In this document: positions 29,876 to 37,010 of the stretch, one piece after another
Layout of the letters: every line of letters starts with the position of its first letter
Position numbering within the stretch: the first letter of the stretch is position 1
IMG/VR virus record: IMGVR_UViG_3300025154_000065
Location: 22,772 to 86,771 of that record
Length of the DNA: 64,000 bases
From: a virus
Direction: 5' to 3' (one strand)
Program-made: the position numbers and the translations under genes
Notes under the pieces: generated by a model
Database searches by the model: none
Told to the model about the DNA's origin: nothing
Seen by the model: only the letters and a program-made list of their open reading frames with translations

Positions 29876-31753
29876 TTAATTTATTAATTGTTTGGCATTT
29901 GTTTTTATCTTAGCCGCAAAATCACGACCACCTAAAACTGCCGCAATATCTTTTATATTTGCATTCGCAACTTCTTCAATATTGTGAAAACCAGCATTGT
30001 ATAGTAATTTGGCTCGCTTGCCGCCTATCTTTGGAATCTTTACTAATTGAACCATATTTTCGTCGATCCCATAGATAATGCGATCAGGCAATATTTTCCA
30101 TAAATCATCTTTTCCCCACCTAGAGAAGCGGGAATCTATCATGGAAATTGCTTGGACACAGCGTTCGATATCATATCTCACAGTACGCATCAATGGCGCA
30201 ATTGCTCCTTTCATTTCATCGCCTTTAAGAAGAGAGTAAGTTGCAAGAATAAAATGTCCATTGAATCCATTTGATTCTATCCCTCTATTTCTAAGCTTCC
30301 ATTGTATTTCTGAAACTTCTGCCGACAATTCCTTCGGGGTGTAGTTCCATGTATACTCTGGTCTATTCGCCAATGCCCAAGACAGCGTGTAATCATCAAG
30401 TTCTATTTCATTTTTAAAGATTTTGTTGAAATTGACGTAAAATGCATAAATATCGTAGGGAGATATGTACAACCAAGAACTGATCTGACCTAGATTTGTT
30501 ATATTATAACTAAAATTCCCGTCGGCGCTTTCAACCATTGACATTCTTTCCAAATCCGAAAACAATCCCTCTGCATCATCTAATGTAAAATCTTGATTTT
30601 GAAGGAATGCTAATGATCTTTGATACCATTGTAGCATTTGTTTTGCATTTCTAATATTCCCAGTGCTGATTTCTGCCAAGGTATGGAAGGCAAGTATTCT
30701 ATGATCGTTTAATACAGAATCAACATCTCTAGGATTTTTGAATACTTCTTCCCAATGAGATTTAGAACCATAAGGAATGATAAGATTTACAAATCCAGCA
30801 TCATCAATACCGTAGCGTCCCGCTCTGCCCGAAGCCTGCGCTATATCCATAGAATCTACTTCTTGCATACCTCTGTGAATACCTGTTATAATACAATTGC
30901 GTGCAGGTGTGTTACATCCCCACGCAAGTGTATTCGTGGATACTAATACTCTTAATCCTCCTTGTCTATTTTTAAATGAATCTTCTATTTCTTTACGATC
31001 CTCAAAATCAAGATCGGCATTATGGAATAATGCATCTTCGCCTAATTGTTTTAATTCGTGTACAATCTTTCTTCCTGTTCCTTTGTCCCAAACAAAAATA
31101 AGGTATTTTTCATCAGGTTTTTCCATAGCAGTTTGTACAGCGGTATCAATTTTTATCTTTTGAGTCGCTTGATAGTCCATTCTTCCGTAAGAAGATATTG
31201 CTGTATTATATTGAATATAATTCATTTGAAGTTGAACTGGACGCCAATTGCAATTAATAATTTCTGTCTTCTTCCCATTAAGTCGAGTTGTCCACTCTCC
31301 TAGTTCTGATACATTGGGCATGGTAGCACTGAGAAGTAATATTCTTGCATGTGGATTAATTTGAGAGAAACGCATGATTCCTACTTCTACTGCTGGACCG
31401 CGATCCATTGCAAGGATATGACTCTCATCGACAATCAGTAATCCTACATTGAGAAGCCATGTATATTTCTCTGATTTCATTTTACGAGTTACTGAATCAA
31501 GTAATTCAGATGTGGTAATGATGATATCAGAAGTTGCAGCTTCGGCCATTTGTTTTGCTCTAACTTTTTCATTGTAAAGAGTATCGCCTGTAAGCATAAG
31601 GACTTTGTGATTAGGGAAGCGTTTATCCCATTCTTGTTTCTTCTCGCTCCCGAGTGCTTTCAAAGGAGCCATATATAAACATTTATTTCTAAAATATCCA
31701 TCATCTGGTTTGTATTCTTTGAGATCTTGTTTTATAAATTCTCTTCTACTCAT
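29876..31753 (-). CDS. Hel308/Ski2-like helicase, C-terminal part (motif Ia onward)
   Basis: YMAPLKAL, DESH, LSAT, FHNA, TLAWG.N.PA, QASGRAGRYG, winged helix and C-terminal HhH; no Walker A. Confidence 0.88.
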   Translation of the reverse strand: MSRREFIKQDLKEYKPDDGYFRNKCLYMAPLKALGSEKKQEWDKRFPNHKVLMLTGDTLYNEKVRAKQMAEAATSDIIITTSELLDSVTRKMKSEKYTWLLNVGLLIVDESHILAMDRGPAVEVGIMRFSQINPHARILLLSATMPNVSELGEWTTRLNGKKTEIINCNWRPVQLQMNYIQYNTAISSYGRMDYQATQKIKIDTAVQTAMEKPDEKYLIFVWDKGTGRKIVHELKQLGEDALFHNADLDFEDRKEIEDSFKNRQGGLRVLVSTNTLAWGCNTPARNCIITGIHRGMQEVDSMDIAQASGRAGRYGIDDAGFVNLIIPYGSKSHWEEVFKNPRDVDSVLNDHRILAFHTLAEISTGNIRNAKQMLQWYQRSLAFLQNQDFTLDDAEGLFSDLERMSMVESADGNFSYNITNLGQISSWLYISPYDIYAFYVNFNKIFKNEIELDDYTLSWALANRPEYTWNYTPKELSAEVSEIQWKLRNRGIESNGFNGHFILATYSLLKGDEMKGAIAPLMRTVRYDIERCVQAISMIDSRFSRWGKDDLWKILPDRIIYGIDENMVQLVKIPKIGGKRAKLLYNAGFHNIEEVANANIKDIAAVLGGRDFAAKIKTNAKQLIN

Positions 31754-32593
31754 AAATATCTCCTATTTTCATTAGAGATTTCATTTATAGCATCTTTAAT
31801 TGCATCTGATAAAGACTCCATTACTATTCCTGCAATCCTATTTTTAGATAGGTGTCTTTTATGCATACGCAAATATTTAAGGAATATTGATTTAATGGCA
31901 AGATAAGATTCTTCTTGTAATTGACCCACCAATCCTCTTGATTTTTCCATAGCATCTCCTTATACTTCAATAAATTTAATTTTCTTTCCACACCAAGGAC
32001 AAAAATTAATTTCTGCCGACCAATTAGTTGAAGTAGTCTTACCTCTATTCCCTAGAACTGGAACTTCTTTATGTGCTGAAATATATACGGCATGGTTGTC
32101 AATAGCATTCTTCATCGTTTCACAACATGTTCTCATTGATGAGATGTTGTGGCCGCAGTATCTTATAATAAATTCATCTTCATCTTGATCTTGATCATCA
32201 AGATTGATATAATCATCTGTTCTTTCATGTAGAAGATGACTTTGCAATACTCTTAATCTATCAAGAATAATATTGTATAATTTCCTATAGTTTGAATTAA
32301 CATGATGCTCGGTTCTTTGTATTTCTAATTCATTGATGATTGAATCAAGATTGATATCACCATTAACTTCTTTTTTATAATTATCCTCTACTGATTTATT
32401 CAATTCAGGATCTTTTGCCCAATAAAATCTAATACTATTTCTAGCACACGTCTCAAGGAATTCCAAAAGAGTAACATCTCCAAGTATATTGGCTTTATAG
32501 AAAGAACCACCAGCTTTTTCAAAAGCCTGTCGGAGATTTTCAGTAGTCTCAATATCCTGTTCAAAAAATTTAAGTCTCATTCTGTCATCCATT

Positions 32594-32806
32594 TTATTTC
32601 TCCATTATATCAGTAAGATTAATAATAGATTCTTTCTTCTTCAATCCATTTATTGCAGTAATGATTCCACCTGCTGATATAAATACAGTAGCAATCAACA
32701 AAGCAAGAGTTCCTTCTATCTCATGAATAGCTGATTGCTACTGATAAAGGATTTGAAGTCCCCAATATACGTGTAAAGCACCCAATGCAAAGAATATGTA
32801 GCTCAT
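32594..32806 (-). pseudogene. small two-TM protein with an in-frame TAG at 32738-32740
   Basis: MSYIFFALGALHVYWGLQILYQ*QSAIHEIEGTLALLIATVFISAGG...MEK* exactly fills the intergenic gap. Confidence 0.6.
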
Positions 32807-35085: not shown

Positions 35086-36110
35086 TTTTAGATTCCTCTT
35101 TTTTGTACATAAATATAAGCCAATCATTAAGTAAATCTCTAAGGGCTTCACCAGCTTCTCGACTAAATTGAATTGTTGTTTCTTTACATCTATTATCAAG
35201 ATCATGTTTTTTTATTCCAGATATTTTAATTGATCCACCTGGAATTTCTCTGACATAAACAGATCTATTCTCATCCAAATTTTTGCACTTACAAAAGGTA
35301 GAATTCATTGTCAGACTCCTTTGTTTTGATTACATTGATTGCTTCAATCTCAAAATTATTGAAATCATTTGTTTGTATTGTTAGAATCTTATGAGTCTCT
35401 TCATTGATTAATCCACCCGGATCATAATCCCATTCTGTACCACCTGGGGCATAATAAGTTCCAGTCTTTACAAAATGTATATTACTAACAAATCCTTCAA
35501 CATCAAGAAATCTTTCAACATATTCTATATAAATTTTTCTTTGCTTTCCTCCAAATCCTGCATTTTTACATTGAACATATGCAATAGCTTTTGCAATCTT
35601 CTCTTCACAAAAAGAATATAACCTAATATCTTCTTCAAATAATGAAAATTCATCTTGGATATTAAAGATATCTTTTAAAAACTTCTGTATATCTTTATGA
35701 TGATCTTTAAGGACTACCTTAGTTTGTTCTTTGAAATCCATAGGATATCCACAGCGAATAAAAACATCAGGTTTGATTATTTTTACATAATCACCTACAC
35801 GAATGATTTTAGGATCTTTTTTCTTAGACATATTATTCTCCATTAATTTGATCAAAAATAAAAACTACGGCAAATATAACAATTGCAAAAAACAGAAAGA
35901 TAATGAAAGTTACAAATAGGGAAGCAATTATTTTTATATGACATATCCAAATAAAGAGATTTGTTGAAAAAGATTTTTCAATATCAAATCTATTCCATAT
36001 CATGCTAATCATTAGCATAAGCCATGAGTATGATACGGCACCTAGATTAATAAGTTGACATACTCCAAGAGATGGATATTTATCGGACAATTCTTTAATT
36101 TTACTCATTT

Positions 36111-37010
36111 TTAAACTCCATATTTTAAAACATGGTCAATTATTAGCTCGGCGCAGATAGTCTTCCCTGCACTGGTCGAAGCTGAAATTATCATATTGCA
36201 GTCTTTATCTCTAAGGGGCATCACAAGGGACTGCACCGGATTAAACTCTAAGAATTTATATTTCCAGTCGGGATATGTTTCTGTTCTGATTCTTTCAACT
36301 TCATCTCCTGTAATTGGCTCGATTTTATCATACCTCGGCCTGTCAGACACTTCTGGAATATCTTTGCCTTCCTCTGCCTTCGATTCATTCCTTTGATCTT
36401 CATTTCCTTCCTCCTCAAATAGTTTGTCAATAAATGATTGAATAGCTTCTGGATCTTCTGCCTTTACCTTTGCTTCAAAGGTAAGATATCCCTTTGGGCT
36501 TTGTTCCCCTAGAACATAAGGAAGTTGATTATCTGTCAGGCGACCAAAGCGATTGAGGTTCTCTAGGAGAGATTGTGCAAAATTACTTCTCTTTAGAACC
36601 TTTGATTCAAGAATGGCTTTTACATAGGCCGGATCAGTTTGACTCCACATTTTTACAGTAGGTTTCTTTTTGATCTCAATGTCTTTTGTATTCTGTAAAA
36701 ACTCGTTAATCCTTTGTTGAATACGATCTTTGATAAGAGTTGCGCCTTCAACTCGATTAATCCTCTTACCTTTGCCGCAGATGTTATCATTGAGTTTATC
36801 ATAGAAACAAACTCTTATTGCGTCAGTACCAATATCCCTTGTTTGATTTGTAAATTTATCAACTGAAGAATAAATACGAACAGCCAGGTTTTCTTTATCT
36901 GTATTGATTTGGTAAATATATTCTTTGCTTCTAAAATCATTAATGACTTCAAAATCTTTCGGAAGCCATTCTTCAAATTCCTGTTTTGTTACAGTGACAA
37001 AATTTGACAT
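36111..37010 (-). CDS. protein ending in the Q-motif and Walker A of a Hel308-like helicase
   Basis: C-terminus FNPVQS...NMIISASTSAGKTICAELII. Confidence 0.8.
   Translation of the reverse strand: MSNFVTVTKQEFEEWLPKDFEVINDFRSKEYIYQINTDKENLAVRIYSSVDKFTNQTRDIGTDAIRVCFYDKLNDNICGKGKRINRVEGATLIKDRIQQRINEFLQNTKDIEIKKKPTVKMWSQTDPAYVKAILESKVLKRSNFAQSLLENLNRFGRLTDNQLPYVLGEQSPKGYLTFEAKVKAEDPEAIQSFIDKLFEEEGNEDQRNESKAEEGKDIPEVSDRPRYDKIEPITGDEVERIRTETYPDWKYKFLEFNPVQSLVMPLRDKDCNMIISASTSAGKTICAELIIDHVLKYGV

Follow-up and report, generated by a model that had tools for sequence, protein, structure and literature searches.

The window analysed here, a 64,000-nucleotide stretch of a viral record, encodes a repair-type, Ski2/Hel308-like DNA helicase as two genes. 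It is probably a 'genes-in-pieces' helicase of an uncultured groundwater phage, made by a homing endonuclease gene (HEG), whose two products would reassemble non-covalently and whose break holds cargo. This is a known type of gene splitting, here unusually spread out. The first-pass annotation, which had proposed a two-gene helicase with an ATP site formed in trans, was right about the natural split but missed that the arrangement belongs to the known genes-in-pieces class and recurs at the same site.

Motif content of the two halves

Both ORFs were found as first described, 4.4 kb apart. The N piece (299 aa; 36111..37010, minus strand) carries the N-terminal domain of the family (residues ~1-200), a disordered acidic linker (198-229), and then the Q motif, strand β1, Walker A and helix α1, ending in ...HVLKYGV*; its C-terminal stretch reads ...FNPVQS...STSAGKTICAELIIDHVLKYGV*. 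All 15 split N pieces share the Q motif FNPVQS (residues 256-261; 36228..36245, minus strand) without change, and likewise the T, S, G, K and T of the Walker A/motif I TSAGKT (residues 279-284; 36159..36176, minus strand). The piece stops 15 residues past the Walker A threonine, and Pfam DEAD matched it only with profile positions 1-35 (residues 257-291), in agreement with the annotated end of this half at the Q motif and Walker A. The ~230-aa domain fused to it had been called unknown; it is instead the standard N-terminus of the family (~245 aa) and is seen in fused homologues, since a MSNFVTLTKEQFE-type N-terminal domain opens most of those of ~850-1000 aa. Typical relatives are one protein of ~900 aa, and the homologues labelled as fused (n = 93, among the best 120 of 268) range from 626 to 1013 aa. 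A search with the ~245-aa domain gave no clear fold match (best Z 6.4).

The C piece (625 aa; 29876..31753, minus strand), matched by Pfam, PHROG and sequence alignments to solved helicases, begins 22 residues upstream of motif Ia. It comprises a 21-aa lineage-specific tail, RNK, motif Ia, all later motifs and RecA2, followed by a region aligning to the Hel308 winged-helix/ratchet and a C-terminal helix-hairpin-helix (HhH), so that by alignment it appears to possess the C-terminal architecture of Hel308. The junction RNK (residues 22-24) and motif Ia APLKAL (29-34) lie at 31652..31690, motif II DESH (109-112) at 31418..31429, motif VI QASGRAGR (306-313) at 30815..30838 and the HhH domain (570-606; Pfam HHH_5) at 29936..30046, all on the minus strand; SAT and STNTLAWG are residues 142-144 and 272-279. 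Pfam DEAD positions 46-166 were matched by residues 23-150, Helicase_C and HHH_5 also matched, and the PHROG 6819 match begins at profile position 62 of 645. The claim that this half starts just before motif Ia and holds every remaining motif is borne out by the DEAD 46-166 match and by DESH, SAT and motif VI.

Membership in the Ski2-like/Hel308-type SF2 helicases is indicated by the Q motif and motif I on the N piece and by Ia, DESH, SAT, V and VI on the C piece; the full set (Q, I, Ia, Ib, II, III, V, VI) is present only when both ORFs are combined. The C piece aligned with ASCC3 (E 8e-55), with Brr2 (E 5e-50), with residues 69-536 of Hjm (E 1e-36) and, over its residues 237-616, with residues 295-678 of Hel308 (2p6r; E 4e-44). 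Like Hel308 it ends in an HhH. Every solved relative among Hel308, Hjm, Brr2 and ASCC3 (PDB 2p6r, 2zj2, 8alz, 4f91) is single-chain, whereas the phage helicase is in two chains, and the phage family has an extra N-terminal domain of ~245 aa relative to them.

The spacer and its junctions

The spacer (4357 nt; 31754..36110, minus strand) contains seven same-strand ORFs, ligA and six others, matching the initial description of ligA and several small genes between the halves. Next to the N piece is a 91-aa ORF (35833..36108, minus strand), hydrophobic by eye and with no family match in Pfam or PHROG; its ATG lies 2 nt past the N piece stop, with a GGAG, formed by the Gly-Val codons of the N piece, at the position expected of a Shine-Dalgarno. 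It is followed, on the same strand, by a 188-aa ORF with no family matched (35289..35855; Atlas scores ≤0.83), a 76-aa ORF with no function assigned (35078..35308), the complete NAD-dependent DNA ligase LigA (33076..35085; domains Ia, adenylation, OB, Zn, HhH and BRCT), which probably starts at Met41 of the longest ORF and then has 669 aa, an 88-aa ORF with no function assigned (32808..33074), a 210-aa ORF (31960..32592) whose C-terminus weakly resembles a DUF6980-like zinc-ribbon and which matched a nuclease in no search run, and a 66-aa ORF (31750..31950) whose TGA stop overlaps the ATG of the C piece (ATGA). An AGGAG Shine-Dalgarno sequence lies 6 nt 5' of that ATG within the same overlapping arrangement. 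Stop codon, RBS and ATG are thus in place for separate translation of the halves without intron or intein. No homing endonuclease, HEG remnant, recombinase, intron or intein was recognisable in the 4357-nt spacer.

Neither ligA nor any other spacer gene was found within 10 kb of the helicase in the IMG/VR loci. Homologues of the N piece (82% identity), the C piece (80%) and LigA (63%) each come from an 11,389-nt contig, perhaps different contigs. The LigA homologue ends at residue 485 of 709, as though at a contig end; if it is cut there, ligA may lie outside the helicase interval in the ~80% relative.

The N and C pieces form one uninterrupted ORF in the GenBank phages LR756511.1 (675 aa) and Mvi-JY20, and their contiguity there shows a genuine split rather than a fortuitous similarity. 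This is a metagenome assembly and the record has a frameshift elsewhere, as would suit a chimeric contig and an artefactual separation. However, both junctions are spanned, without any difference, by contigs of runs that belong to different samples and studies. The C start is covered by X5 record 16 (31258-31817), X7 record 25 (31654-32137) and X10 record 9 (31712-31963), and the N stop by X5 record 20 (35902-36384). The whole stretch lies on a 33.9-kb contig of X1, possibly the source sample. The read support across the junctions that had been suggested as a check is therefore provided by contigs of other runs, misassembly is unlikely, and, as the stand-alone halves of relatives also stop and begin at the same places, we regard an artefact as extremely improbable.

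Rejoining of the pieces is also very unlikely, be it through a giant or trans intron spliced at the RNA level, a split intein, translational bypass or removal of the 4.4-kb segment by excision, even though the same helicase family hosts inteins (L040, L086 and L083 among the relative loci). Rfam gave no intron match at E ≤ 1 over 29000-38000 and, at gathering score over the whole window, nothing besides two tRNAs, while Pfam found no Hint/intein domain, so the statement that there is no intein or intron signature held. A group I or II intron was rejected on the empty Rfam search over 29000-38000 and because seven ORFs, among them a complete ligA, take up the spacer. Inteins carry His-Asn at their C-terminus, and the 21-aa tail of the C piece has no C-terminal His-Asn; intein halves of the 'fractured gene' type were rejected on this short tail, the end of the N piece 15 residues past the Walker A threonine and the lack of a Hint match. 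Developmentally excised (skin-like) elements have a recombinase gene and border repeats, and their joined form is detectable. Here no site-specific recombinase family was matched (Pfam, PHROG), there were no direct repeats at the borders, and no contig joined 31753 to 36111, although contigs can miss rare forms; an excisable element was rejected on these grounds. The single joint seen, 32879 to 36240, came from one contig with a 21-letter side. T4 gene 60 has an additional translational bypass, and nothing comparable was seen in the window.

A recurrent cut in the same loop

Fused and split relatives were compared, as had been proposed. The protein search (best 120 of 268 at E ≤ 0.001; with the window protein and Mvi-JY20, 121 counted) left 9 proteins unlabelled and 112 labelled; 93 of the 112 were fused and 19 split-type, a label given by the start of the called protein, so that some database proteins are possibly miscalled or truncated. 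The IMG/VR scan, taken over the best 80 of its 191 relatives, showed one ORF across the site at 75 loci (6 of them assigned by eye); 4 of the others were split and 1 ran into a contig end. A single gene is the usual form, and the split recurs in the same loop: the gene contiguous in relatives is cut between motifs I and Ia, the genes-in-pieces pattern, and the split label requires at least 13 changes on the 112-row tree. Of 17 homologues that are stand-alone N pieces, 12 stop no more than 12 residues past helix α1, and 7 of these 12 have a final 'GV', as the window does.

Among relatives with DNA, a free-standing HEG is the sole gene between the halves at four loci from three lineages. The spacer nucleases are 279 aa and DUF559/Vsr-like in L005, 321 aa and DUF559 in L006 and its near-copy L012, 239 aa with 3 NUMOD3 repeats and an HNH-like motif by eye in L008, and 321 aa and HNH in L105. 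These nuclease ORFs adjoin or overlap the helicase halves, with no space for an intron core. L104 is a second wide-spaced case, with a 4.8-kb spacer, 11 ORFs and an HNH gene on the opposite strand. A nuclease gene was accordingly present in the spacer of every relative split locus with DNA (L005, L006/L012, L008, L104, L105), and all six split arrangements keep the N-before-C order on one strand. The 19 nt 'AAAATATGGAGTTTAAAAA' over the N-piece stop are identical in the window and L005, and the C pieces of L005 and L105 start with MRNK, corresponding to RNK at residues 22-24 in the window; the 'YGV-stop' and 'RNK' junctions are common to the window and the HEG-split alleles.

Inteins also occur in this helicase family. 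At motif V, L040 and L086 carry a split intein together with a Vsr-like HEG; in L083 a contiguous intein sits within DExH; a similar in-frame gap is present in L116.

We propose that a free-standing HEG entered the loop between helix α1 (after Walker A) and strand β2 (motif Ia), which would have turned one ~900-aa gene into two independently translated genes. In the window lineage the HEG would later have been lost or replaced, and the break would have taken up ligA and six small ORFs as cargo, leaving the halves 4357 nt apart. We infer this order of insertion, loss and cargo uptake; since the window spacer has no HEG or remnant, the HEG origin rests on the relatives and on the 19-nt and 3-residue junctions.

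The same two-chain outcome could have arisen differently, by direct insertion of a ligA block or a local rearrangement with no HEG in the lineage. The nuclease-free spacer of the window, the ~80% identity relative that may have ligA outside the interval, and L104, which shows that large multi-gene spacers occur, speak for such an origin, but we consider it unlikely: the break point and the junction letters match those of HEG-split L005 and L105, a nuclease gene is found at every other split locus with DNA, and order and strand are kept throughout. Still less probable is that the halves are decaying remnants of an insertion-inactivated helicase with no helicase role left. The cut within the RecA1 core would fit decay, and another SF2 helicase gene in the window is frameshift-broken, so that the record carries at least one disrupted gene. 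Against this, the halves are full length and show no indel relative to relatives of 75-91% identity (the N-piece relatives at 91% and 82% are both 299 aa, the C-piece relatives at 80% and 75% both 626 aa), and alignments A2 (15 rows, split N pieces) and A1 (17 rows, split-type C pieces) show no variation in the Q motif, T-S-x-G-K-T, DExH, SAT and motif VI. Moreover, split forms occur in many lineages, the C piece has an RBS and a start codon, the end branch on the tree is of ordinary length (0.11 vs a median of 0.24), and no second copy of this helicase was found in the 86.8-kb record.

Predicted assembly and known split genes

On the favoured reading, the N piece would give the N-terminal accessory domain together with the Q motif, strand β1, the P-loop lysine and helix α1, and the C piece the rest of RecA1 (Ia, Ib, DESH, SAT), RecA2 (V, VI), the winged-helix/ratchet and the HhH. 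The chains would join non-covalently by fold complementation, with β1 of the N piece entering the RecA1 sheet of the C piece and so creating a composite ATP site. The complex prediction suggested at the outset passed its controls: the model scored 0.81 in three runs against 0.00 for the best control. The mark was attained for 116 of 157 solved complexes and for 2 of 215 mismatched pairs, although the score may reflect only the model's memory of, or likeness to, single-chain helicases. At least 64% of contacts were common to the runs and partner pLDDT was ≥74. In the model the first strand of the N piece lies within the C-piece RecA1 sheet, where residues 272-275 of the N piece pair with 137-141 and 161-166 of the C piece. 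Together with the motifs, the RBS and the contigs, this model supports the idea of a natural two-polypeptide helicase whose ATP site probably draws on both chains. Reassembling non-covalently asks much of chains that are cut in the RecA1 core and have no docking domain and hardly any tails. The two proteins most likely reassemble without covalent rejoining.

To our knowledge, HEG gene fragmentation is represented by few studied cases, Aeh1 nrdA and T4 39/60, besides the split-intein 'fractured genes'; the Aeh1 split gene is reportedly also treated by Friedrich et al. in 2007.

The nrdA-a/mobE/nrdA-b genes of Aeromonas phage Aeh1 are 'genes in pieces' (Crona et al. 2010, PMC3045599). There, as is proposed here, a free-standing endonuclease gene has cut an essential DNA-metabolism gene within the catalytic fold, and the active-site residues are distributed over two polypeptides; that paper describes non-covalent assembly that restores function with no RNA or protein splicing, which for the phage helicase is predicted. 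By the same account, Aeh1 retains the HEG as the only insert, whereas the window has a 4.4-kb spacer with ligA and six ORFs and no HEG between the halves (one is present there in L005, L006/L012, L008 and L105); and the element-derived tails of Aeh1 are essential for activity, whereas the N piece is nearly tailless and the C piece has a 21-aa tail. The T4 topoisomerase large-subunit gene is split by mobA into gene 39 and gene 60 (Edgell et al. 2010, PMC2988022); as is proposed here, an HEG inserted in a functionally critical region and two coding regions must reassemble, but the enzyme is another one and the T4 halves still adjoin the HEG. In Dassa et al. 2009 (PMC2677866), 'fractured genes' pair a split intein and a Vsr-like or GIY-YIG HEG that is free-standing, and phage replication and repair genes, including helicases, are halved with a Vsr-like endonuclease gene between; the helicases covered there are gp41 (DnaB-type), not Ski2/Hel308-like. 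This layout is exactly matched at motif V in L040 and L086 of the present family. The window halves lack intein parts, so ligation, unlike in fractured genes, is impossible.

The family thus offers a natural series for one protein and one site, from the intact gene through HEG-only splits with nucleases of three types, a split intein accompanied by an HEG and a contiguous intein to two lineages with cargo and halves 4.4-4.8 kb apart. It also provides a testable RecA-fold ATPase in two chains, divided after the P-loop helix and before the strand that follows, with no docking module, which bears on split-enzyme design and on the origin of subunit genes. Annotators should note that a '300-aa hypothetical protein' may belong to the same enzyme as a '600-aa helicase lacking Walker A'. 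Only tentatively, we suggest that the helicase works as an obligate heterodimer, in which the P-loop strand would come in trans from the partner chain without intein, clasp or long tails, and that the endonuclease-made break has become a stable landing site on which unrelated cargo genes accumulate. If so, the traffic of selfish nucleases can give rise to a small gene island within an essential gene, with a complete NAD-dependent ligase and six ORFs as cargo here and eleven ORFs in L104, and the halves would be becoming separate, independently regulated subunit genes.

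The two helicase pieces and the one-gene form of the family

The stretch belongs to an 86.8-kb IMG/VR virus record with a CheckV completeness of 66%, and the sequencing runs containing it are groundwater and soil metagenomes. Its G+C content is low (about 0.27-0.44 in 2-kb windows), the minus strand carries most ORFs, and its replication module includes a clamp loader, a sliding clamp, a primase, a DnaB-like helicase, methyltransferases and two tRNAs; a search for near-identical DNA in GenBank phages found none. Two ORFs of the minus strand encode the halves of one Ski2/Hel308-like helicase. 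The N piece (36111..37010, 299 aa) holds the Q motif FNPVQS (256-261) and, ahead of a single helix, Walker A TSAGKT (279-284); its last residues are ...HVLKYGV*. The C piece (29876..31753, 625 aa) starts 28 residues before motif Ia, contains the DESH and SAT motifs as well as V and VI, and has an HhH at its C-terminus. Because the Pfam DEAD profile is shared out over both ORFs, with positions 1-35 on the first and 46-166 on the second, the first-pass annotation was correct in describing a helicase in two ORFs. The nearest solved relatives of the C piece are the Ski2-like helicases ASCC3, Slh1, Brr2, Hel308 and Hjm (E 8e-55 to 1e-36). Each of the two pieces has translation signals of its own. 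An AGGAG lies 6 nt upstream of the C-piece ATG, which overlaps the TGA of the preceding ORF; the final sense codons of the N piece, GGA GTT, provide a GGAG that probably serves as ribosome-binding site for the following ORF, whose ATG is 2 nt past the stop. The promoter and terminator scan gave nothing above shuffles.

From the protein database search (the best 120 of 268 homologues at E<=0.001, plus the window protein and that of Microcystis phage Mvi-JY20) 121 proteins were examined, and nine that could not be labelled were left out (P0001, P0048, P0061, P0062, P0090, P0096, P0097, P0104 and P0111). The 93 fused proteins of this set, mostly about 850-1000 aa long, begin with a MSNFVTLTKEQFE-type domain as in the window's N piece and continue from Walker A into motif Ia; 19 proteins, the window's own included, are of split type and start at most 35 residues before motif Ia. 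Since the MSNFVTLTKEQFE-type domain heads the fused homologues, it is no by-product of the split, and what had been taken for a fusion of the N half to a ~230-aa unknown domain is the normal N-terminus of the family. In the predicted model of the N piece (mean pLDDT 76.5), residues 1-115 form a beta-sheet-plus-helix module, which is accompanied by a helical part; Foldseek gave no match at E<=0.001, and the best hits of the VIA wide search (Mediator Med17, PsiB, YbjN-like) reached Z 6.4, within the 'common' range of the tool.

The helicase part is a single ORF in GenBank phages LR756511.1 (595-kb genome) and Mvi-JY20, and the record G001 holds a fused homologue only, at 35% identity. At the break site the fused forms read ...VLxxG-KR-VIYLSPL. 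IMG/VR relatives were missed by single-protein scans and recovered by alignment-based ones, and among the best 80 of 191 the gene is fused in 75, split in four and cut by the contig end in one; these counts and the metagenome counts are not independent, as they have contigs in common (e.g., L015/L088, L011/L097 and L018/L102, all relative helicase loci). Sixty of the 80 metagenome loci (L106-L165), in which the match was restricted to a helicase part of 35-110 residues, were excluded from the census and include distant, apparently eukaryote-like Ski2/Mtr4 genes.

A second SF2 helicase of the window (PHROG 16 / 9690; 22615..24044, minus strand) consists of two overlapping ORFs in different frames, of 270 aa (23232..24044) and 225 aa (22615..23292). 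The frame changes directly after GFTATL, near 23250-23270, where there is no homopolymer, and the homologue is one ORF in all five relatives translated (L005, L008, L013, L015 and L017). Programmed slippage, a genuine frameshift or a mistake in the assembly could each account for it.

Recurrence of the break in relatives

A search with the N piece identified 17 stand-alone homologues of 164-524 aa, 12 of which end within 12 residues past the post-Walker A helix, seven of these with the 'GV' end of the window. Four N/C pairs share their source and have equal contig sizes (11,389, 7,853, 12,359 and 16,068 nt), from which we infer that each pair lies on one contig. In a FastTree built from 112 rows of the helicase core, the split label must change at least 13 times, and the minimum is the same if starred branches alone are respected; the label itself depends on the start positions of the called proteins. 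The comparison of fused and split forms proposed in the first-pass annotation thus yielded a predominantly fused family in which the split recurs at the same loop, between the Walker A helix and motif Ia.

In several relatives the break is filled by a nuclease gene. The spacer of L005 (867 nt) holds a single 279-aa DUF559/Vsr-like ORF, that of L006 and its near-copy L012 (951 nt) a single 321-aa DUF559 ORF, and that of L008 (712 nt) a single 239-aa ORF in which three NUMOD3 repeats and an HNH-like motif were recognized by eye; in L105 (1080 nt) the start of a 321-aa HNH ORF is overlapped by a 52-aa ORF. L098 is a short contig with an L008-type N end. In the short spacers the nuclease ORF lies flush with, or overlaps, the halves on either side, which leaves no space for an intron core. 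A wide break filled with cargo occurs a second time in the distant relative L104 (3931..10614), whose spacer of 4818 nt has eleven ORFs, five of them on the opposite strand; a multi-gene spacer therefore arose at least one further time. The opposite-strand ORFs of L104 include an HNH gene (7450..8223) and a DUF7873 gene (6577..7344).

The same helicase family is interrupted at other sites as well. L040 (1096..4953), and also L086, carry a split intein and a Vsr-like homing endonuclease gene (HEG) at motif V: the N part ends with an intein N-half after the motif (STSTLAWG|AVNEE...), followed by a 240-aa DUF559/NUMOD3 endonuclease ORF and a C part that opens with the intein C-half (...GILTHN|CNLPARN), the textbook 'fractured gene' layout. 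In L083 (8354..11581) the DExH box of a 1075-aa helicase is interrupted by a contiguous intein (VVDE|CLPPS...VLVHN|CHLLT), and a 257-aa ORF (9192..9965) is nested within the gene in a different frame; L116 has a similar in-frame gap and may be alike. In the relative proteins P0135/P0062 (a 132,502-nt contig is listed for both) and P0136 the break lies between motifs Ib and II, the N part ending in ...ILTGITF or ...KNYWIRNY and the C part beginning with MVDSRTRRMESE..., as seen from the proteins alone.

Junctions, spacer and integrity of the split genes

The break in the window falls in the same loop as the split alleles of its relatives. The 19 nt AAAATATGGAGTTTAAAAA, which cover the last codons, the stop and the following bases, are identical between the window and L005, although the helicases share only about 50% identity. 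MRNK opens the C pieces of L005 and L105, and in the window RNK stands directly before motif Ia after a 21-aa tail that is kept in the two closest relatives (MS[RK]REFIKQD...). The junctions of the window match the class split by free-standing HEGs.

The spacer (31754..36110, 4357 nt) opens with a hydrophobic ORF of 91 aa, followed by ORFs of 188 and 76 aa, by ligA, a complete gene for an NAD-dependent ligase, and by ORFs of 88, 210 and 66 aa. Neither Pfam, PHROGs, tblastn with the HEGs of three relatives nor Atlas found a nuclease in it; the best tblastn hit elsewhere in the window had E 0.007 (4311-4811), and the Atlas look-ups of the 210-aa and 188-aa ORFs, with scores of at most 0.85, are leads at most. 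The spacer genes are absent within 10 kb of the helicase in all of the best 80 of 191 IMG/VR relatives. A LigA of 63% identity comes with the same 11,389-nt contig size as halves that are 80-82% identical, and breaks off at residue 485, as would a protein truncated by the end of its contig. The ligase gene of that relative may therefore not be located between the halves, which would count against a simple history.

Within ligA, 10 of the 12 adjacent bases 34454..34465 of the window read differently in contigs of the runs X1, X5 and X7. This block is part of an arm of a 22-nt inverted repeat (34354-34375 / 34448-34469) and reflects either a local difference in assembly or a variant of four in-frame codons. 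Only one non-coding gap of the spacer is sizeable (32593..32807, 215 nt); it contains a 24-nt hairpin (32686-32743) and shows small indels between runs (TT added after 32734, 2 nt absent at 32742), and may be a regulatory region. A joint 32879->36240 in a single X5 contig, with 21 letters on one side, was taken as noise.

Elsewhere, in the replication module, an HNH endonuclease gene (10925..11506; 19 PHROG HNH families at E<=1e-5) is flanked by tRNA-Pro(TGG) (10492..10568) and tRNA-Ser(TGA) (11652..11726), all within 10492..11726 on the minus strand. It resembles the free-standing nucleases of phage tRNA clusters, so that HEG-like genes are present elsewhere in this phage.

A misassembly that pulled the halves apart is unlikely, since contigs from other samples and studies cross the C-piece start without differences (X5 31258-31817, X7 31654-32137 and X10 31712-31963) and an X5 contig does the same at the N-piece stop (35902-36384); both junctions have support from contigs of other runs, where the first-pass annotation had called for read support. 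One 33.9-kb contig covers both junctions and all that lies between them, and may come from the source sample. It is also improbable that the halves are decaying remnants of a helicase gene: N pieces at 91% and 82% identity keep 299 aa each, C pieces at 75% and 80% identity keep 626 aa each, the catalytic residues are invariant across 15 split N pieces and 17 split-type C pieces, the window's tree branch is not long (0.11), and no further copy of this gene was found in the 86.8-kb record, which CheckV rates at 66% complete, so that the rest of the genome may hold one.

Rejoining of the pieces into one product, by splicing or recombination, is unlikely. Rfam gave no match at E<=1 in 29000-38000 and only the two tRNAs in the whole window, and neither piece has an intein or Hint domain, in agreement with the earlier remark that no intein or intron signature was visible. 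Recombinases and repeats at the spacer borders were sought and not found, and no contig was seen to join these borders.

Precedents and predicted reassembly of the helicase

The closest precedent is Aeh1 nrdA-a/mobE/nrdA-b, where an HEG splits the active-site barrel, the enzyme is fully active and the element-derived tails are essential (PMC3045599). T4 39/mobA/60 is a second such case (PMC2988022), and Dassa et al. (2009) reported 'fractured genes' with split inteins and Vsr-like HEGs from phage metagenomes, gp41 helicases included (PMC2677866). The window differs from these precedents in that the enzyme is a Ski2/Hel308-like helicase cut inside RecA1, between motifs I and Ia, without intein or clasp, and in that 4.4 kb of cargo including ligA, but no HEG, lies between the halves. 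No description of a split Hel308-type phage helicase was found in open-access papers and preprints. We infer that the helicase gene was broken by an HEG, which would later have been lost or replaced while cargo genes were gained in the break.

The first-pass annotation had proposed a heterodimer with an ATP site assembled in trans, to be examined by complex prediction of both ORFs. The complex model scored 0.81 in three runs, against 0.00 for the best control, with at least 64% of contacts common to the runs and a partner pLDDT of at least 74; the mark for this score is passed by 116 of 157 solved complexes and two of 215 mismatched pairs. Since single-chain helicases of the same fold have been solved, the pass may mean likeness rather than binding. 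In the model, beta1 of the N piece (272-275) is sandwiched by two strands of the C piece, the SAT strand (137-141) and 161-166, and the ends of the cut loop touch (N 294-299, C 21-27); the N-terminal domain and the initial 20 residues of the C tail are outside the confident interface. The two chains would associate by fold complementation, and, given the established roles of the SF2 motifs, the Q motif and K283/T284 of the N piece would form a composite ATP site with D109/E110 and the motif VI arginines of the C piece.
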